Assembly: GCA_944393125.1 (NCBI GenBank)
Contig: CALXZB010000003.1
Location: forward strand, 4,693-68,692
Length of the DNA: 64,000 bases
DNA from: an uncultured Clostridia bacterium
GTDB taxonomy: Bacteria > Bacillota > Clostridia > TANB77 > CAG-508
Reading direction: 5' to 3'
Shown here: positions 2,877 through 11,757 of the stretch, in pieces
Layout of the letters: each line of letters starts with the position of its first letter
Numbering within the stretch: the first letter of the stretch is position 1
Position numbers and translations under genes: made by a program
Notes under the pieces: model-generated
What the model saw: the letters and a program-made list of their open reading frames with translations, nothing else
The model's database searches: none
Told to the model about the DNA's origin: nothing

Positions 2877-2894
2877 AACAAATATAAAATAATA

Positions 2895-3152
2895 AGAGCC
2901 TATGAAAAAGCAAAGTAAATATATTAATTTATATTACAGAGAGAGTAGCATAGCTGAGAGCTATTTATATAAAATATATTGAAATTTCACTTTTGAGGTC
3001 TTGCTTTGAAAGTTAAGTAGAAGTGAGCGTTTGTAACGTTAAAACTAAAATAAGGTTAATAATATAATAAATATAGAAATTATTAATAAAATTAGGTGGT
3101 ACCACGAAAAGAATCATTCGTCCTAGTAAAATTAGGAGAATGATTCTTTTTA
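2895..3152 (+). promoter_or_regulatory. T-box riboswitch leader, probable Phe specifier (UUC)
   Basis: Stem I elements AGAGAGAGTAGC...GCTGAGAGC. Candidate specifier TTC followed by A at about 2986-2989. Conserved T-box AAATTAGGTGGTACCACG at 3089-3106. Terminator GAATCATTC/GAATGATTC plus TTTTT at 3111-3152. It lies upstream of pheST. Confidence 0.8.
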
Positions 3153-4578: not shown

Positions 4579-6942
4579 ATGAAATTAAGTACAAATTTTG
4601 TTAAAGACTATATAGATATAGATGTAGATGTAAAACAATTAGCAGAAGATATGACAAGAGTTGGTAATGAATATGACTCTGCTGGTAAATTAATAAATGC
4701 AACTAAACTAATAATAGGAAAAATAATAGAATGTGTAGATCATCCTGATTCAGACCATTTACACCTTTGTAAAGTAGATATCGGAAAAGAAGTTCTAAAT
4801 ATAGTATGTGGAGCTCCTAATGCAAGAAAAGGATTAAAAGTTATTGTTGCACAAAATGGAGCAGAACTTCCAGAAAAAACTATAAAAAAAGGAATGATAA
4901 GGGGACAAGAATCAAATGGAATGCTTTGCTCAATTGCTGAACTTGGATTAGAGCATAAATTCTTAAAACCTGAAGACAAAGATGGAATTGCTGAACTTGG
5001 AGAAGATGCAGTTATTGGAGAAGATCCAATTAAATATCTTGGATTAAATGATGATGTTATAGATTTTGAACTAACAGCTAATAGAGGAGATTTATTAAGT
5101 GTACTAGGAATGGCATATGAAATAGGAGCAATATATGATAAAACTGTAAAAACAGTAGATTTAAGTCATAAAGAATATGGAAAAGATTTAAATGAAAGTT
5201 TTAAAACAGAAGTAAAAACAGATAATTGCAAATTACTTTTAGTAAAAAAAGTAGAAAATGTTGAAATAAAAGAAAGTCCAAGTTTTATAAAAAATAGATT
5301 AATAGCATCAGGTATAAGACCAATTAATAATGTAGTAGATATAAGTAATTATGTAATGCTAGAATTAGGGCAACCATTACATTTTTATGATGCAGATAGA
5401 CTAGGAAAAAAATTAGTAGTAAGAATGGCAGAAAAAGGTGAAAAACTTACCACTCTAGATAATATAGAAAGAACTTTAGACGATTCAGATATAGTAATTG
5501 CAGATAGTACTCATGGAGTTGGACTTGCAGGAGTAATGGGAGGTTTAGAAACAGAAGTTGAAAATGATACTAAAAATATAATAATAGAATCAGCCATTTT
5601 TGACTCTGTAAAAATAAGATTAACATCAAAAAAGATTTTAAGAAGTGAGGCAAGCAATAGATTTGAAAAAGGATTAGATCCTAATAGAACATATATGGCA
5701 ATAGAAAGAGCATGTACATTATTAGAAAAATATGCAAATGGAAAAGTTGTTACTGGAATTGTTAAATATGATAAAACAGATAATAAAGAAAAAGAAATTA
5801 ATTTAGAGTTCAAAAATGTTAATGATGTATTAGGAACAACAATTTCACAAAAAGAAATTCTTGATGTATTTAGAAAATTAGGATTTTCTTATTCTGTAAA
5901 AGGAGATATTGTAACAGTCAAAGTTCCTACAAGAAGACTAGATATATCTATAAAAGAAGACTTAATTGAAGAAGTTAGCCGTATATATGGAGTTGACAAT
6001 ATACAGGGAAAACTACCAGTAGTGCCTATGAAAAAAGGAACATTTGATAAAACTCAAAGAGAAATAAGAAACAAGATGATAGCACTTGGATTAAATGAAA
6101 CATTAACATATGTTTTAATTAATGACAAAGAAGTACATAAATTCACTTTAGATGAATTTGAGGAATTGAAATTATTAGATCCAATTACAGAAGACAGAAA
6201 TACATTAAGATATACAATAATACCATCATTATTAAAAATATATGAATATAATAATGCAAGAGGACAAAAAGATATATCAATATTTGAAATAGGAAAAGGT
6301 TTTTACAAAAAAGGAGAAATATACGGAGAAGACACAAAACTATGCTGTTTAATGACAGGAAAATATTCAATAGGATTAAATCATACTAATAATGTTGACT
6401 TCTATACAATTAAAGGTGTTGTAGAAGAGATTCTAAATTATTTAGGATATGAAGGAAGATATAGCTTTATAAAACAAGAAATGCCAAAAGAAATACATCC
6501 AGGTCAAAGTGCATATATAAATGTAAATGGAACTGATGTAGGAATTATTGGAAAACTACATCCAAATGTAAGTAAAGAAGATATTTATGTATTTGAAATT
6601 AATTTAGATGAATTATTTAAGAAAAAAGTTGGAAAAATGAAATATAAAGAAATTTCAAAATTTCCAAGTGTAAAAAAAGATGTTGCATTTTTAATCAATA
6701 AAAAAGTAGTATCAAAAGACATTGAAAAAGTTATTAAAAATTCAGGGGGAAGTATACTTTCAGATATAGAAGTATTTGATGTTTACACAGGAAAAAATAT
6801 AGATGAAAATAAAAAATCTATTGCATATTCATTAAATTTTATAGATAATAAGAAAACCCTAACAGATGAAGAAGTTAATAATTTATTAGAAAAAATTATT
6901 AAAAATGTTTGTGATAAATTTGGAGCAGAACTTAGAAAATAA
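4579..6942 (+). CDS. pheT: phenylalanyl-tRNA synthetase beta subunit
   Basis: 787 aa with tRNA-binding, B3/4, B5 and FDX-ACB regions recognisable (NRGDLLSVLGMAYE, RFEKGLDP). RBS AAGGAGG. Confidence 0.97.
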   Translation: MKLSTNFVKDYIDIDVDVKQLAEDMTRVGNEYDSAGKLINATKLIIGKIIECVDHPDSDHLHLCKVDIGKEVLNIVCGAPNARKGLKVIVAQNGAELPEKTIKKGMIRGQESNGMLCSIAELGLEHKFLKPEDKDGIAELGEDAVIGEDPIKYLGLNDDVIDFELTANRGDLLSVLGMAYEIGAIYDKTVKTVDLSHKEYGKDLNESFKTEVKTDNCKLLLVKKVENVEIKESPSFIKNRLIASGIRPINNVVDISNYVMLELGQPLHFYDADRLGKKLVVRMAEKGEKLTTLDNIERTLDDSDIVIADSTHGVGLAGVMGGLETEVENDTKNIIIESAIFDSVKIRLTSKKILRSEASNRFEKGLDPNRTYMAIERACTLLEKYANGKVVTGIVKYDKTDNKEKEINLEFKNVNDVLGTTISQKEILDVFRKLGFSYSVKGDIVTVKVPTRRLDISIKEDLIEEVSRIYGVDNIQGKLPVVPMKKGTFDKTQREIRNKMIALGLNETLTYVLINDKEVHKFTLDEFEELKLLDPITEDRNTLRYTIIPSLLKIYEYNNARGQKDISIFEIGKGFYKKGEIYGEDTKLCCLMTGKYSIGLNHTNNVDFYTIKGVVEEILNYLGYEGRYSFIKQEMPKEIHPGQSAYINVNGTDVGIIGKLHPNVSKEDIYVFEINLDELFKKKVGKMKYKEISKFPSVKKDVAFLINKKVVSKDIEKVIKNSGGSILSDIEVFDVYTGKNIDENKKSIAYSLNFIDNKKTLTDEEVNNLLEKIIKNVCDKFGAELRK

Positions 6943-6947
6943 GAAAT

Positions 6948-6973
6948 CCCCCACCGTAATGAAACGGTGGGGG
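6948..6973. terminator. GC-rich bidirectional terminator between pheT and the convergent foreign ORF
   Basis: 9-bp stem CCCCCACCG/CGGTGGGGG flanked by T-rich runs on both strands. Confidence 0.75.
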
Positions 6974-7020
6974 CAAATTTTTACCTAAATCTAAGTCAAA
7001 AACTCAGAAAAGGTGGAGGA

Positions 7021-7593
7021 TCATGCCGGATAGATGTCAGACAACAGGCCGATATCTTTGCCGGAATCATCACATACCAAATAACTGTGGTAGTCCTTGT
7101 CAAAAGTGGACAAGATGGTAGCTTTGGGATTACCATTTTTGTCCATTCCATGACTCAGGATAAAGTCAATGCCGATACGCCCACTGGAGGGTTTACCATT
7201 GATATTAATGGTAGCTGTTCCATCACCATTGTAGGTGAGGTTACAATGCTTGACCCACAAGGGCTTTGCCTCATCTTCGCTGGGAATAAGCATTGCGTGA
7301 AGAATGCGAGGCTTTGTGTAGAAGAGCCCATCTACTTTGGTCAGATTAACTCCGACCTGTCCAATGGACCAGCAGTTGAATCCGCTGGTAGTCTTATCAG
7401 ACTTTTCAAAACAGATAACAGATCCGAGAGGAGCTGCTACCGGCCCAGAAACATTGTCCAAAATCAGCTGATGGTGTTCCACACTGATTGCATCCCGAAG
7501 AAATTCAGGAATTGTGCTCAGAGTGGAAATCTCCACAGAATTTTCTTGCTGAGCTACAGCAGGGGCATGGATCTTAATGACGTTGTACAACAT
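7021..7593 (-). CDS. hypothetical protein, 190 aa, in a GC-rich (about 45%) segment, probably horizontally acquired
   Basis: ATG at 7593 is preceded by GGAGG (7601-7605 on the + strand reads CCTCC). The ORF-track start at 7608 is a TTG inside that RBS. No motif I recognise. The predicted fold looks beta-rich. Confidence 0.6.
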   Translation of the reverse strand: MLYNVIKIHAPAVAQQENSVEISTLSTIPEFLRDAISVEHHQLILDNVSGPVAAPLGSVICFEKSDKTTSGFNCWSIGQVGVNLTKVDGLFYTKPRILHAMLIPSEDEAKPLWVKHCNLTYNGDGTATININGKPSSGRIGIDFILSHGMDKNGNPKATILSTFDKDYHSYLVCDDSGKDIGLLSDIYPA

Positions 7594-7737
7594 TTTGTTA
7601 ACCTCCAAAAATTTTTTGTTAATAAAATTAACACTATTATTATACCAAATTTTAATAAAAAAGTCAATTTATGTAAATTATAAATTAATTCTAAAAAGGT
7701 ATTATTTATAAAAAATTAGAATTTTTGTTCGCAAGTA

Positions 7738-7766
7738 TTGCTATTTTTAATGTAACATGCTATTAT
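7738..7766 (+). promoter_or_regulatory. candidate promoter of the 33-aa hydrophobic peptide gene
   Basis: TTGCTA, 17-nt spacer, TATTAT. Confidence 0.4.
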
Positions 7767-7851
7767 TATTTAACATAGGAAATGAGAATAAGCAGATGTG
7801 TGTTTCCACTTTACTACATAGTTTATACTATGGGAAAGTGAGGTGGTGTTT

Positions 7852-7953
7852 ATGGAATTTATATTATCATTAATATATGCATTGGGATTTTCCCTTACTG
7901 TAAACGTAGCCTTATTAGCAATTATATATATAATGTGGACAAATAAGGAATAA
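7852..7953 (+). CDS. 33-aa hydrophobic peptide, type I toxin-like
   Basis: MEFILSLIYALGFSLTVNVALLAIIYIMWTNKE. Strong SD GAGGTGG lies 4-5 nt upstream. It has a single TM helix plus a short polar tail. It is below the ORF-track length cutoff. Confidence 0.45.
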   Translation: MEFILSLIYALGFSLTVNVALLAIIYIMWTNKE

Positions 7954-8037
7954 TAAAAACAACACATCTTTGCTTGACCGGCAGATGTGTTGTTACGACT
8001 AATATGTGGTAACCACTATTTGTGGTTTTCATTTCCT
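7953..8037 (-). ncRNA. putative convergent antisense sRNA (antitoxin-like), about 85 nt
   Basis: Near-consensus minus-strand promoter. On the minus strand, the hairpin AACAACACATCT/AGATGTGTTGTT (7958-7994) is followed by TTTTTATT, so it works as an intrinsic terminator in that direction only. The transcript would overlap the 3' end and 3' UTR of the peptide gene. Confidence 0.4.
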
Positions 8038-8043
8038 ATATTT

Positions 8044-8072
8044 ATTATACTAATTTTCTATATAAAAGTCAA
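8044..8072 (-). promoter_or_regulatory. near-consensus sigma-A promoter on the minus strand driving the putative antisense sRNA
   Basis: The minus strand reads TTGACT, a 17-nt spacer, then TATAAT. Confidence 0.5.
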
Positions 8073-8109
8073 TGATTTTTTGTCTATATTAAAAAACTTT
8101 ACATAAATG

Positions 8110-8138
8110 TTGCACAGAAATATTAAATATGATATAAT
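8110..8138 (+). promoter_or_regulatory. promoter of the deaminase-fusion gene
   Basis: TTGCAC, 17-nt spacer, TATAAT. Confidence 0.45.
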
Positions 8139-8169
8139 AGAATACAATATTTAAAAAAGGAGATTAGAA

Positions 8170-10671
8170 ATGATAAATAAATTTTACTTAGATAAAGAAA
8201 AAGATATAATAGTAAATTTATACAAAACAGGAGAAGATGAAATTACATATATACTAGAAACTCCAAATCATAATACAGGAAATCTAATTACAAATTTAGC
8301 GCAAATTTGTGGTCTTGAAACAACCAAAAATGAACAAGGACTAAAAGTAATTATAGGAACAATACCAGCGAGCATAAATGGTGACAATGAGGAAGTATAT
8401 ATATTTAGATTAGGTGGAATAAAAATTGCTAACATATATGAAGGTAGAGTTGAAATAAAGGCAAAAATACCAGCAATAACCAAAACATTAATGTCACAAA
8501 CTAAAAACTATAAATTACCTATAAATAAAACAATAGTAAAAACATACATAATCAAAAAACTAAAATTTAGAACAGATTTACACACACATATGAATGCAAA
8601 TTTATCTCCAGACTGCTTAATAGCTTTAGGAATAGTTCATCAAGTAAAATACCCATTATATTATATTAAAAAGTTAAATTTAAAACTAAGTAAAAAACAA
8701 GAAGAAAAAATATACAAACAAAGAGAAGAAGTAGAAAAAAGATTTGAAAACAGCGAATTACAAGGAAAATATTTAACCAGAAAAATAGATGACAATACAT
8801 TTATAAATTTTGCGGATTTTATATTAAACAATTTAGAAAATGCACAATATAATATAGAAAAAATAAGAACTAGTTTAGCAATATTAAAAGATGGACAAGC
8901 AGTATTTACTAACCTAGAAAAATGTTATATTTATAGATATGTATTTGCCAAAGGAAGCACTTCAACTGAAAAAATTAAATTTACAGAAGAAGAAGTAAAA
9001 ACAATACCAGAAAAAGATATAGTAGAAATTGTATTAAAAATGCTAGAAGACAAAAAAGAAAATAGTCCATATAAAAATAATACATTAAGACAAGATAAAC
9101 TTTTATGGATTGCTAGAGAATATAAAAAACAAGGAATTAAATATGTTGAAATAGCAGACACAGAATTAGCTAAAATTGGAGAACCAGCAGTTAAAATGTT
9201 ACAAGAAGTTCATGATATTTTTCCAACAATTGAAAAAGAAACAGGAGTAAAAATAAGATTTTTATTAGCAATTAGAAGAATTGCATTAACAATAATAAAA
9301 GACCAGAAAACCAGTGATACATATTTAAAAGATACAATGAATGTATTAAAAGCAGTTGCCAAAAGTCCATATGTTGTTGGAAGTGACATAATAGGAGAAG
9401 AAATAAATGACATATCTGACTTACAACCATTAATAGAACAGATTGTTAAATATGTTAAAGAAGAAGATCCAAAATTTACTATAAGAATACATGCTGGAGA
9501 AAATGATAGTTTGAAAGACAATGTAAGAAAATCAATTCTATGTGTAAAGGAAGCACTAAAAGAGGGACAAACAATGCCTAAATGTAGAATTGGACATGGA
9601 CTATATTCAGAAGATTTAAACAGTCAAGAAGGAAAAGAACTAATACAGCTAATGAAAAAAGCAGGAATTATAGTAGAATTTCAATTAACTTCTAATGTTA
9701 GACTAAACAATATAAGTGATTTAAGTAATCACCCAATCAAAAAGTTTTTACAAAATGGTATAAAATGTGTTCAAGGTACAGACGGATGTGGATTTTATGG
9801 TTCAGACACATTTGATGAACAACTTGCTTTGCAAAATTTATTAGGATTAACAGATGAAGACTTTGAAAAAATGAGAAAAGTAGAAGAAGAAATAATAGAA
9901 AATAGTGAAAATTATTTTAAAGAAAAAAGTGAAAAATTTGAACAATTTTTAGCAGGAAGAACAATAAGAGAAGCGGTTCTTGAATTAGAAGAAAAAAATA
10001 TGAAAGAAACAGAACACCAAGGCGAGTTAAGAATTACAAACAGTTTATACACAGAAACAGAATTGAAAGAAAAAATAAAACAACTACCAACAGATAAAGT
10101 GCCTGTAATAATTGCAGGAGGAAGTTTTAATACAAAAGGAAGAGAAACAATACCAACACAAGAGGGAATAAAAGTATTAAGAGATTTTATAGAACATGTA
10201 GACAATAATAATGTATATTTTATTATAGGACATAAAATGCAAGGCTATGAAAAAGCCATAGTAGATATTTCGAAAGAACTAAATAAAAAATTTGAAATAA
10301 ATGCAATTGTTCCAAAAGTTGTTACACCCAAAGTAAAAGATAGATTACTAGATGAAAACATAAATGGAATTTGCGTTTCAACAGAAACAGAGGAACTTGG
10401 AATTTACAAAAGTTTTAATTATGAAATTTTTGAAAGAAGAAAATCTATTGTTATTGCTTTTGATGGAAATTCACCAGTATTAAATTTAGTGCAAGAAGCT
10501 AAAAATGGAAAAGGCAAATCAAAAATATATGTTAACAAAGAAAATCAATTATTAAAAGAAAAAGCTGATACATTAGATGGATATGTAGTTCCATTTGAAA
10601 TGAAAGATAAAATAGTTAATAAAATATTTGAAGATAATCCAGAAATATTACAACCTAAAATATTAAAATAA
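8170..10671 (+). CDS. adenosine-deaminase-fold (amidohydrolase) protein with an unknown N-terminal domain and a C-terminal SLOG/LOG-like Rossmann domain, 833 aa
   Basis: RBS AAGGAG. ADA motifs occur in order: DLHTHMN, IRIHAGEN, CRIGHGLY, QLTSNV, QGTDGCGF. C-terminal PVIIAGGSFNTKG...YFIIGHKMQGYE...VIAFDGNSPVLNLVQEA resembles LOG/SLOG glycine-rich motifs. Confidence 0.8.
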   Translation: MINKFYLDKEKDIIVNLYKTGEDEITYILETPNHNTGNLITNLAQICGLETTKNEQGLKVIIGTIPASINGDNEEVYIFRLGGIKIANIYEGRVEIKAKIPAITKTLMSQTKNYKLPINKTIVKTYIIKKLKFRTDLHTHMNANLSPDCLIALGIVHQVKYPLYYIKKLNLKLSKKQEEKIYKQREEVEKRFENSELQGKYLTRKIDDNTFINFADFILNNLENAQYNIEKIRTSLAILKDGQAVFTNLEKCYIYRYVFAKGSTSTEKIKFTEEEVKTIPEKDIVEIVLKMLEDKKENSPYKNNTLRQDKLLWIAREYKKQGIKYVEIADTELAKIGEPAVKMLQEVHDIFPTIEKETGVKIRFLLAIRRIALTIIKDQKTSDTYLKDTMNVLKAVAKSPYVVGSDIIGEEINDISDLQPLIEQIVKYVKEEDPKFTIRIHAGENDSLKDNVRKSILCVKEALKEGQTMPKCRIGHGLYSEDLNSQEGKELIQLMKKAGIIVEFQLTSNVRLNNISDLSNHPIKKFLQNGIKCVQGTDGCGFYGSDTFDEQLALQNLLGLTDEDFEKMRKVEEEIIENSENYFKEKSEKFEQFLAGRTIREAVLELEEKNMKETEHQGELRITNSLYTETELKEKIKQLPTDKVPVIIAGGSFNTKGRETIPTQEGIKVLRDFIEHVDNNNVYFIIGHKMQGYEKAIVDISKELNKKFEINAIVPKVVTPKVKDRLLDENINGICVSTETEELGIYKSFNYEIFERRKSIVIAFDGNSPVLNLVQEAKNGKGKSKIYVNKENQLLKEKADTLDGYVVPFEMKDKIVNKIFEDNPEILQPKILK

Positions 10672-10733
10672 ATATTTGAAATATAAAAAAAATATGTTAT
10701 AATGTAAAAAAATGATAATAAAGAGGTATACAT

Positions 10734-11633
10734 ATGAGAATAGATCAAAGAATGGAAGAAATACAAGGTAAATTAATGAAAATAATGGCAGAAGCAAATA
10801 ATAGAGAAGAAGGAATTAAATTACTAGAAGAATATGGACTAGATAAAGAAACAGCAACAAAATTATTAAAAGCATTTGAATATACTGAATCAGCAAAACA
10901 AACAGCAAAAAATGTTTGGGAATCAGCATATGAAAGCAAAGTTGGAAGTGAATATTCAGACGAAATGGCAAAAAGCCAAGAAACAGCAACAGATGCTAGA
11001 ATGTATTTTGATTTATTTAATGGACAATGCGCATTGCTAATTATTGCAAGAACTCTACCACCAAACCAAATAAGTCCTGAAGTATTAGGTAAATTATATG
11101 AGAGTAAAATAAGAGAAGAACAAATAAACAATTCAGCATTAAGAGTTTCATACCATTATTATTGTGAAAGTCAGCAGAAAAGTATAGACAAAGAAAAATT
11201 AAAAGAGTTTATGGAAAAGGTAAGAAAAAATTCAATAAGTCAAAAAAGAGAAATAGAGAAAGCAGAAGAAAAATATAATGCATTAAAGAGAGATTATATA
11301 AATCTTCAACATGAATATTCAGAAATAGTTGAAGAACATGAAACATACTACCAAACTGCACTTTCATTGATTAAGGAATTACAAGCAAAAGTAAATCAAC
11401 TACAAAGGAGAGGGATTTTTCAAGTAATAGGTGATAAAATATCAGGAAAAAACGTAATCCAAAGAAGAAGATTACCAGGAAATAACCCTGAACTTCCAGA
11501 ATCTTTATATAAAAATAATACTGAAAGAATGGGGTTATATGTAAGAAATGAAGGAGAAGGAAAACAAAATGATAGAAGCAAAACATCTTCTGAACTAGCA
11601 AAAAAAGTAGAAAATGATGAATTACAACAATAA
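10734..11633 (+). CDS. hypothetical helical/coiled-coil protein, 299 aa
   Basis: RBS AAGAGGT. Heptad-rich central region with a basic disordered tail. No terminator separates it from the upstream deaminase-fusion gene. Confidence 0.65.
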   Translation: MRIDQRMEEIQGKLMKIMAEANNREEGIKLLEEYGLDKETATKLLKAFEYTESAKQTAKNVWESAYESKVGSEYSDEMAKSQETATDARMYFDLFNGQCALLIIARTLPPNQISPEVLGKLYESKIREEQINNSALRVSYHYYCESQQKSIDKEKLKEFMEKVRKNSISQKREIEKAEEKYNALKRDYINLQHEYSEIVEEHETYYQTALSLIKELQAKVNQLQRRGIFQVIGDKISGKNVIQRRRLPGNNPELPESLYKNNTERMGLYVRNEGEGKQNDRSKTSSELAKKVENDELQQ

Positions 11634-11674
11634 AAACGATAAAATTATAAAAAAGACTTGACAAATGAACAAAA

Positions 11675-11709
11675 AAGGTGTAAAGTATATTAGCATTACA
11701 CCTTTTTAT
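11675..11709 (+). terminator. intrinsic terminator closing the deaminase-fusion/299-aa gene pair
   Basis: Stem AAGGTGTAA/TTACACCTT followed by TTTATT. Confidence 0.6.
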
Positions 11710-11757
11710 TATGTTAAAAAGAGTAAAAATGCGAAAACAAAAGAGGTGATAGTAGAA

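Follow-up and report, generated by a model that had tools for sequence, protein, structure and literature searches.

What would a bacterium do with an adenosine deaminase (ADA) joined to a SLOG domain in a single protein? The question is raised by a gene at positions 8170..10671 of the forward strand (+) of a 64,000-nucleotide stretch of DNA, referred to here as the window, from an uncultured Clostridia bacterium of the CAG-508 lineage (GenBank assembly GCA_944393125.1, contig CALXZB010000003.1, positions 4,693 to 68,692). In the list of open reading frames (ORFs), the gene begins with ATG and codes for 833 amino acids (aa) plus a stop. The explanation that we favour, and to which we give about an even chance, is that it encodes a stand-alone, chromosomally inherited enzyme, a putative ligand-regulated deaminase of adenine nucleotides or nucleosides, with control of the adenine-nucleotide pool preferred over a role in a mobile anti-phage system.

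The protein has three domains: an N-terminal domain (aa 1-132), an ADA barrel (aa ~133-600) and a SLOG domain (aa ~618-826). A preliminary description, made by reading the letters of the window, had proposed this ORF and quoted eight motifs from it, and all eight are present at or close to the residues then given. Five belong to the barrel: DLHTHMN (136-142), IRIHAGEN (438-445), CRIGHGLY (472-479), QLTSNV (505-510) and QGTDGCGF (535-542). The other three are C-terminal: PVIIAGGSFNTKG (645-657), YFIIGHKMQGYE (683-694) and VIAFDGNSPVLNLVQEA (761-777). Two sets of relatives were used for comparison. The first is a family alignment of 50 full-length relatives at 20-68% identity, which was too diverse for the first genome scan, for which a 12-member alignment worked. 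The second consists of 82 loci of the window's own clade, taken from the 80 best GTDB genomes and two metagenome contigs. The full-length AF2 model built on the 50-member alignment has a mean predicted local distance difference test score (pLDDT) of 92.2 and a predicted template-modelling score (pTM) of 0.92, and it predicts a single confident assembly. All three domains are under purifying selection among the 82 clade orthologues. A few family members gave weak Pfam matches to Radical_SAM, KH and Cas9-WED, which were treated as noise.

The middle of the protein (aa 133-600; 8566..9969, +) is an adenosine/AMP-deaminase (beta/alpha)8 barrel according to Pfam, to sequence and profile matches in the PDB and to Foldseek. 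Pfam A_deaminase (PF00962) matches residues 315-570 with E=3.5e-21 (76.1 bits against a cut-off of 27) and matches 50 of 50 family members, which puts the match far above chance. The catalytic set of H138, H140, H441, E444, H476 and D538 is complete. Residues G404, D406, E411, H441, G443, E444, N451, R473, G475, H476, E503, S508, N509, D538 and Y543 are invariant in the 50 relatives, T135, D136, H138 and H140 are conserved in at least 90% of that alignment, and the 82-member clade likewise shows little or no variation at the metal and catalytic positions. The complete catalytic set and the long helical inserts rich in lysine and glutamate (K/E), both first read from the translation, are thus borne out by the Pfam match, the conserved residues and the model.

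Which deaminases does the barrel resemble most? With the full model as query, Foldseek returns ADA1, ADAL, bacterial Add, adenosine monophosphate (AMP) deaminase (AMPD), ADA2 and Cad1 as best PDB matches, with E values of 1e-11 to 1e-8 for ADA1, ADAL, AMPD and Cad1 and a probability of 1.0 for ADA1, ADAL, AMPD, ADA2 and Cad1. The target-normalised template-modelling (TM) scores are about 0.55-0.75 for the single-domain ADA1, ADAL, bacterial Add, AMPD and ADA2 and about 0.35-0.5 for the two-domain Cad1 chains. Ordinary ADAs are the sequence matches in the PDB, at about 1e-9. The family profile places bacterial Add and Plasmodium ADA first (1e-19), with ADAL/MAPDA at about 1e-11 and Cad1 at only 4e-5, and no RdrB structure is found among the PDB sequence or profile matches. 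Because the profile ranks Add and Plasmodium ADA above Cad1 and leaves RdrB undetected, the barrel has no special kinship to the known defence deaminases. Add and Plasmodium ADA, the closest solved relatives by profile, share its metal and catalytic residues but are single-domain proteins of about 330 aa, whereas the window protein adds an N-terminal domain, an insert, a linker and the SLOG domain and has Gly in place of a second Asp. It also falls far below the NCBIfam equivalogs for Add (PRK09358 / TIGR01430), with a best score of 55 bits against cut-offs of 216-549.

The exchanged Asp lies at the purine contact. In ADA, the second Asp of the TDD motif normally contacts N7 of the purine. In the window protein, the second Asp of this TDD/SDD motif is replaced by Gly539, and at least 90% of the 50 members have Gly there; D538, just before it, is invariant across the 50, and the aligned position in Plasmodium ADA reads SDD. 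The segment past the HxH motif also differs from that of adenosine-specific enzymes. Since the N7-contacting Asp is an invariant Gly and the segment after HxH differs, a substrate other than adenosine is predicted.

A sensor-fused ADA is already known in Cad1, which makes inosine triphosphate (ITP) and arrests growth (PMC11645235). Like Cad1/CAAD, the window protein carries an ADA-family barrel and a Rossmann-like nucleotide-sensing domain in one polypeptide, and the two barrels match in Foldseek at an E value of about 2e-8, the profile match given above being weak. The arrangement differs, however, since the sensor is a C-terminal SLOG domain here and an N-terminal CARF domain in Cad1. Pfam and PADLOC find no CARF domain in the window protein, residues 1-132 being beta-rich instead, and this extra domain and a helical insert of about 150 residues are not Cad1-like. 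RdrB, at ~800 aa, is likewise a large member of the ADA family, and its barrel also carries long insertions. The window protein nonetheless has no PADLOC match at E<=1, a search taken to include the RdrB models, nor is there an adjacent RdrA gene, and RdrB has, to our knowledge, no SLOG domain.

The C-terminal domain (aa 618-826; 10021..10647, +) had at first been likened to LOG/SLOG modules by motif resemblance only, and this assignment is now strengthened by structure. The AF2 domain model, Foldseek and the Pfam matches of relatives agree on a SLOG Rossmannoid domain, probably of the LSDAT clade. The model of residues 618-826 adopts the SLOG fold with a pLDDT of 91.4, and its top 50 PDB matches in Foldseek belong only to the SLOG superfamily (LOG, TRPM2/3/4/8, MoCo carrier protein and DprA), with a best E value of 1.5e-4, TM scores of 0.5-0.6 and 12 matches at E<=1e-3. 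The window protein itself is therefore modelled as having a SLOG fold. LSDAT_prok is matched by 7 of the 50 full-length members; when the C-terminal domain is excised, LSDAT_prok is matched by 16 of 33 relatives (best E 3.6e-7) and LSDAT_euk by 5 of 33. Relatives also match the further SLOG families LDcluster4, YAcAr and DprA.

LSDAT domains (PF18171/PF18139; TRPM MHR1/2) are the best family-level match for this domain, which differs from them in being fused to an enzyme and not to a channel or transmembrane module. The N-terminal MHR1/2 domain of TRPM2 binds adenosine diphosphate ribose (ADP-ribose), and SLOG is an established receptor for ADP-ribose-type signals in both TRPM2 and Thoeris ThsA. 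The family motif YFVTGGTNxGVEK aligns with WIITGGTNTGVMK of TRPM2, in a domain-profile match that is weak (E 0.32). ThsA likewise joins an effector to a SLOG domain at the C-terminus, which there senses cyclic ADP-ribose isomers, but its effector is SIR2 or transmembrane and not an ADA barrel, and no ThsB/TIR gene lies near the window gene. ThsA is also missing from the top 50 fold matches of the SLOG domain, and the relatives match LSDAT models, not ThsA-type ones.

Within the clade, the invariant residues of the SLOG domain are AGGSFN (649-654), G687, G692, E694, G744, YKSFNYEIFER (746-756), DG (765-766), V770, N772, L773 and QEAKNGK (775-781). The glycine loops AGGS (649-652) and GxxxxGxE (687-694) are retained, and the block formed by G744 and YKSFNYEIFER is specific to the window clade. 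The position of the catalytic Glu of LOG enzymes is Asp in the sister groups and an invariant Asn772 in the clade, the correspondence to LOG having been drawn by eye. Because Asn772 occupies that position in the by-eye alignment, catalysis of the LOG type is disfavoured and binding is favoured.

This residue bears directly on another explanation, in which the protein is a bifunctional enzyme of purine salvage or catabolism. The SLOG domain would then act as an N-glycosidase of the LOG/PpnN type that converts AMP to adenine, and the barrel would turn adenine into hypoxanthine (or adenosine into inosine). LOG phosphoribohydrolases, some with AMP bound, are indeed the closest structures to the C-terminal domain (7w2i, 1ydh, 5its and, with AMP, 5zbl; E 1.5e-4 to 1e-3), and the ADA-family adenine deaminases 3rys and 3ou8 are among the fold matches of the barrel. 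The likeness to LOG stops at the fold, however, since identity is 10-13%, the PGGxGTxxE signature is absent and the acid position, as aligned by eye, holds Asn772. Judged by its relatives, the domain groups with the LSDAT/TRPM clade, and the characterised members of that clade known to us are ligand binders and not enzymes. A standard adenine or adenosine site is also made less likely by the invariant loss of the N7-contacting Asp.

Genomic context offers this salvage explanation one hint. A CDA-fold deaminase gene lies upstream on the same strand in 15 of the 82 clade loci (immediately adjacent in 12) and stays there despite rearrangements on its other side. NCBIfam places it as TadA-like, below cut-off, and we take it to resemble guanine deaminase. 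It is the sole metabolic hint in the surroundings of the window clade. A dCMP-deaminase-like gene (10 loci) and a small (p)ppGpp synthetase (7 loci) also recur nearby. An operon of purine phosphoribosyltransferases, nucleoside phosphorylases or transporters was found in 0 of 82 + 47 loci. A metabolic alternative of this kind, a LOG-type glycosidase joined to an adenine deaminase, had been considered to fit equally well in the preliminary description. The CDA-fold gene speaks for it, but it is weakened because no purine-salvage operon is present and Asn772 stands at the catalytic position, and we regard it as improbable.

The N-terminal domain (aa 1-132; 8170..8565, +) is beta-rich and ends in a conserved helix at 102-112 (PAITKTLMSQTKNY). 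The remark that the first 130 residues match nothing holds for Pfam, NCBIfam and PHROG (and the whole protein has no match in PADLOC), yet the domain is conserved and confidently modelled. It aligns throughout the 50-member family, carries an LTxFExRxL motif in the sister groups and has a mean column conservation of 0.83 in the clade. Between strand 1 and the rest of the barrel lies the K/E-rich helical insert (aa ~161-310; 8650..9099, +), past which the Pfam match begins only at residue 315. Helices are modelled there from 163 to 321 with pLDDT >90, and 33% of the insert columns are invariant within the clade. The barrel is joined to the SLOG domain by a long helical linker (aa ~562-617; 9853..10020, +) with modelled helices at 562-594 and 599-614. 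With a mean conservation of 0.66, it is the least conserved segment in the clade except for the C-terminal tail.

How might such a protein work? From folds, motifs, conservation and genomic distribution, we infer a substrate, a ligand, a coupling between the domains and a physiological role. The barrel would be a metal-dependent hydrolytic deaminase that turns the 6-amino group on an adenine ring into a 6-oxo group. H138, H140, H441 and D538 would hold the metal, E444 would shuttle the proton and H476 would position the attacking hydroxide. The substrate is probably a phosphorylated or otherwise derivatised adenine nucleotide and not plain adenosine. The glycine-rich crevice of the SLOG domain most likely binds a nucleotide or an ADP-ribose-like ligand, and by analogy with ThsA, TRPM2 and Cad1, its binding would regulate the deaminase by allostery or by oligomerisation, the roughly 55-residue helical linker tying the barrel to the SLOG domain. 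The enzyme would thereby act on the adenine-nucleotide pool, in homeostasis, stress or growth arrest.

The distribution of the family is one of the main arguments for a fixed chromosomal function. The homologues number more than 5,600, and their annotation goes no further than "hypothetical" or "adenosine deaminase." Among the top 120, identity to the window protein is 82-100% and length about 827-842 aa (one of 811). An exhaustive search of representatives at 50% identity gave 918 matches, many of them proteins of 750-1,000 aa that keep the ADA plus SLOG architecture at 22-37% identity. Relatives occur in at least 578 genomes of GTDB (one genome per species). The best 80 of these are all metagenome-assembled genomes (MAGs) of uncultured gut Clostridia with full-length copies at 64-85% identity, and they come from human, goat, rabbit, chicken, mouse and buffalo hosts. 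An intact ORF of 800-900 aa is found in 81 of the 82 clade loci, the remaining one being cut by a contig end, and there are no pseudogenes. Relatives whose PheT is 80-86% identical to that of the window have ADA-SLOG proteins that are 77-85% identical, so that the protein diverges at about the rate of PheT, which is consistent with vertical descent. An origin in a phage or plasmid was considered and rejected, as none of four collections matched the architecture. It was not found in IMG/VR with two different alignments, INPHARED and PLSDB held only ordinary add genes matching over about 20% of the query, and BFVD held no fold relative at E<=1e-3. Clade conservation, divergence like that of PheT and the lack of partners and of links to mobile elements are the reasons for which we favour a fixed chromosomal function.

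Clade-wide conservation at a PheT-like divergence would fit housekeeping of another kind as well. In this case, the protein would be a sanitiser of N6-modified adenine nucleotides released in the turnover of RNA and tRNA, such as N6-methyl-AMP or N6-isopentenyl-AMP. The SLOG domain would recognise the modified AMP as LOG does cytokinin nucleotides, and the barrel would strip the N6 substituent as ADAL/MAPDA do, giving inosine monophosphate (IMP). The best fold and profile matches of the barrel include human ADAL and Arabidopsis MAPDA (8qch ranks 6-7; 6iv5, 6ijm and 6j4t are lower), LOG enzymes are the best fold matches of the C-terminal domain, and Gly539 fits a non-standard adenine substrate. 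By profile, however, ordinary Add (1e-19) is at least as close to the barrel as ADAL/MAPDA (~1e-11), and no contextual link to genes of RNA turnover or tRNA modification was found. The proposal rests on two analogies, and we consider it very improbable.

The surroundings of the gene bear on a further possibility, that of an anti-phage effector. Here the SLOG domain would sense a nucleotide made or altered during infection and switch on the deamination of adenosine triphosphate (ATP) and deoxy-ATP (dATP) to ITP and deoxy-ITP (dITP), arresting growth as Cad1 and RdrB do. The nucleotide would come from an unlinked host enzyme or from the phage, and in the window clade, one chromosomal gene would by itself serve as a fixed defence. 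The joining of an effector to a sensor is confirmed, and Cad1 provides a precedent (PMC11645235). The gap that holds the gene is also variable, and one of the neighbours there evolves fast. In the window, its slot lies between pheT and ylxM-ffh, with pheT, a 195-aa ORF, a 299-aa ORF and ylxM as neighbours. That the gap is variable, as had been claimed, is clear from relatives: in loci L006, L009 and L022, the order is pheT, the gene and ylxM with nothing else between them, while others carry different extra ORFs. The pheST side is retained only in the closest relatives (>=77% identity), some of which have ylxM-ffh downstream, and beyond them the gene is found among many different housekeeping genes.

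The same surroundings weaken the case for defence. No universal or conserved partner gene exists across the 82 clade loci, and the genes downstream are unrelated to each other; the gene looks monocistronic and without a signal-generating partner, judging from these neighbourhoods. The early observation that no TIR, cyclase, CARF or RdrA-like gene is adjacent proved correct, as no TIR, CD-NTase, cyclase, CARF or RdrA gene is found nearby in the window clade. Neither TIR nor SIR2 is present in the protein or in its two flanking ORFs, and there are no type III CRISPR-Cas genes around the gene or in the annotated neighbour clusters of the 82 loci. M23-peptidase-like and HtrA-like protease genes, as read from sequence, are among the commonest neighbours. 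The downstream ORFs of the clade were considered as a single fast-evolving partner family, which was rejected because the sequences look unrelated and mostly housekeeping; examples by reading are ribulose-phosphate-epimerase-like, NUDIX-like, flavodoxin-like and sigma-factor-like proteins. Other points against an anti-phage effector are the lack of a PADLOC match, the presence of the gene in at least 80 species with PheT-like divergence and no pseudogenes, and its absence from the phage and plasmid collections.

A different picture is seen in a sister subfamily, about 30% identical to the window protein and found in Christensenellaceae, Bacilli, Ignavibacteriales and gut alphaproteobacterial MAGs. 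Its members recur in a cassette with PGDYG (PF14083), a Zn-PLC-like protein of about 170 aa, a protein of about 150 aa and RyR-like regions (loci L085, L086/L087, L089-L098, L100, L102-L104, L117 and L130). PGDYG is adjacent in 13 loci, fused at the C-terminus of the ~970-aa proteins of L089-L091 and placed inside the giant protein of L111. The PGDYG copy of L085 scores 27.8 bits against a Pfam cut-off of 27 (E 3.3e-6) and matches two PHROG families of unknown function at about 1e-6. The Zn-PLC-like protein adjoins ADA-SLOG in L088, L096, L098 and L130, and in L102 it forms an N-terminal fusion. The ~150-aa protein lies directly downstream in L096, L097, L098 and L130 and about 1-2 kb away in L085 and L088. 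A Pfam RyR protein occurs in L085, and in L088, by our own reading (the gene calls differ), an RyR-like region is apparently fused to the Zn-PLC-like module. None of these partner genes is found within the 64-kb window.

This cassette, with its phage-associated PGDYG, its Zn-PLC-like and small proteins and its fusions, is the kind of evidence that would favour an anti-phage effector, as are the genes found beside some sister members. In L092-L094 and L104, PGDYG and ADA-SLOG adjoin a Cas9-like gene (identified by eye), with a serine recombinase near. For example, in L092 and L093, the ADA-SLOG gene (6001-8157) is immediately upstream of a Cas9-like gene of about 1,070 aa (8261-11476). A small P-loop protein is also near the Cas9-like gene in this lineage. 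The Cas9-adjacent loci, however, are near-identical copies of a single lineage. L086/L087 adjoin recombinases, and L088 adjoins a DNA methyltransferase. In a single case, L085, a Nudt16-like NUDIX gene is directly downstream (11213-11737, +). Going by the reference list of PMC11645235, the NUDT16 family clears inosine diphosphate (IDP) and ITP, and the gene would fit an inosine-nucleotide product for that reason. Sister members match the PADLOC CARF_ADA model, but through the ADA half only.

Distant, apparently proteobacterial members of the family have no cassette partners. Three of the 50 (P0225 from L084, P0242 and P0265) have Sec signal peptides by eye, which suits an ATP-depleting cytoplasmic effector poorly; some ADA-SLOG proteins may act outside the cytoplasm. 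In L115 and L118-L121, which represent one lineage, the gene is divergent from pncB- and nadE-like genes (by eye), and this hints at a link to the metabolism of nicotinamide adenine dinucleotide (NAD) and ADP-ribose.

The preliminary description had proposed to examine whether homologues sit near TIR or cyclase genes. Such partners are lacking in the window clade, but the sister subfamily has its cassette and, in one lineage, Cas9. Real support for the antiviral reading thus comes from the sister subfamily alone, and for the window gene we hold an anti-phage role to be possible but doubtful. A broader proposal is that ADA-SLOG proteins are the effector core of undescribed nucleotide-sensing conflict systems. 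The sister subfamily would work with PGDYG, Zn-PLC-like/RyR-like and small partners, and the window clade would use a single gene, possibly together with the ~190-aa neighbour. The enzyme would deaminate ATP/dATP (or NAD/ADP-ribose) on meeting a nucleotide derived from infection and so halt growth. This too we would put forward as tentative and, on balance, unlikely.

The favoured explanation, a stand-alone and chromosomally inherited regulator of the adenine-nucleotide pool, has several points to contend with as well. The 82 loci are carriers of the gene, so that they give a count and not a rate of presence or absence across the clade. No purine-metabolism operon was found that would speak for a housekeeping role, the CDA-fold deaminase being the only hint. 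The gene lies at operon boundaries, flanked by strain-specific ORFs. These ORFs, the fast neighbour, the sister cassette and the Cas9 and recombinase genes are more typical of conflict systems. The window protein's own C-terminal sequence has no Pfam match, the LSDAT models included. Two glycine loops of the sister groups have also been lost in the clade, with GGGxVVxD changed to DGNSPVLN and GxxGAS gone, so that the ligand could be unusual or absent. The residues that replace these loops are, however, invariant across the 82 clade orthologues. Because such a block of invariant residues is kept, the SLOG domain is read from the alignment as functional and not vestigial, although with a remodelled pocket.

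The possible significance of this family does not depend on which role it plays. Two ADA enzymes that carry a fused sensor or form complexes, Cad1 and RdrB, were recently found to act in immunity by poisoning the ATP pool. Sensor-fused ADAs are thus a known kind; what is new here is SLOG as the sensor, in an abundant, uncharacterised family. The titles and abstracts reached by a literature search, which did not cover the 2015 paper that defined SLOG/LSDAT, mention no ADA-SLOG fusion, nor was LSDAT found together with a deaminase or PGDYG found at all. A confidently modelled fusion present in thousands of proteins would allow a direct test of SLOG-controlled nucleotide deamination and of its ligand. 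If the role is immune, the family would bring a new sensor-effector pairing along with PGDYG and Zn-PLC-like partner families of no known function. If it is metabolic, the protein would be a regulated purine-nucleotide deaminase core to a widespread lineage of uncultured gut Clostridia. In either role, the invariant Asp-to-Gly exchange at the purine contact predicts an unusual substrate.

The divergent upstream neighbour (7021..7608, -) is a protein of 190-195 aa whose likely start is the ATG at 7593, and an association with the ADA-SLOG gene is possible. It had been described as a foreign GC-rich ORF. Its G+C content is indeed 35-37% against about 26% around it, but it is not foreign, since the same position in related genomes holds the same family (L001, 9331-9855, -; L002; L004, 9193-9777, -). 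The family counts 170 proteins and has no Pfam domain. These neighbours are 45-48% identical (by tblastn; 47-53% in global alignment) while the deaminase is 85% identical, and on this comparison the neighbour is fast-evolving. The same contrast is suggested for about eight more contigs, at 44-76% against 85-90% for the deaminase. A member also lies divergent beside the sister-subfamily ADA-SLOG operon of L130 (7001-7558), and the family occurs elsewhere without any ADA-SLOG gene too. The idea that it is a remote PGDYG homologue was rejected, with an hhalign probability of 0.1 for both shallow and deep alignments (119 and 12 sequences). A 238-aa ORF at 6967-7683 (+) runs antisense to this minus-strand ORF. 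With neither homologue nor domain, it is probably a shadow ORF that the G+C-rich stretch gives rise to.

On the other side of the gene, a 299-aa K/E-rich ORF (10734-11633, +) has no family match and no homologue in the 82 loci. A near-consensus extended -10 promoter-like site (10676-10703) lies ahead of it, and from these comparisons the ORF is specific to the strain, inserted between the deaminase gene and ylxM.

As for expression, direct reading of the sequence gives a Shine-Dalgarno AGGAG at 8158..8162 (+), 7 nucleotides ahead of the ATG at 8170. A promoter-like site at 8110..8138 (+), found by consensus scan and inspection, consists of TTGCAC (8110-8115), a spacer of 17 nucleotides and an extended -10 element, TGaTATAAT (8130-8138). 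The gene had been credited with its own promoter. The good consensus match makes a promoter at this site plausible, but such sites are not enriched in the AT-rich region around the gene, where 31 were found against 32 expected from shuffles.

The long intergenic region upstream of the gene in the window is missing in close relatives, where the gaps are 146-230 bp. It had been read as a type I toxin-antitoxin-like module (7770-8072, -) and holds a near-consensus promoter (8072-8044, -), a 65-aa hydrophobic ORF (7770-7967, -) and a stretch of predicted RNA structure (fold z = -5.1) in which a hairpin precedes a run of U near 7950-7990. Rfam gives the module no match, and neither the Rfam nor the tRNA scan of this intergenic region returned anything above threshold. 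Directly past pheT is a perfect 10-bp G+C-rich hairpin (6948-6973; CCCCCACCGT...ACGGTGGGGG) that could terminate transcription on both strands. The sub-threshold Rfam matches to anti-hemB and PyrG leader that overlap 6948-6973 most likely reflect the hairpin alone. Further upstream, ahead of pheS, a T-box leader (2893-3128, +; RF00230, 106 bits) is present, as expected for the regulation of pheST in Firmicutes.

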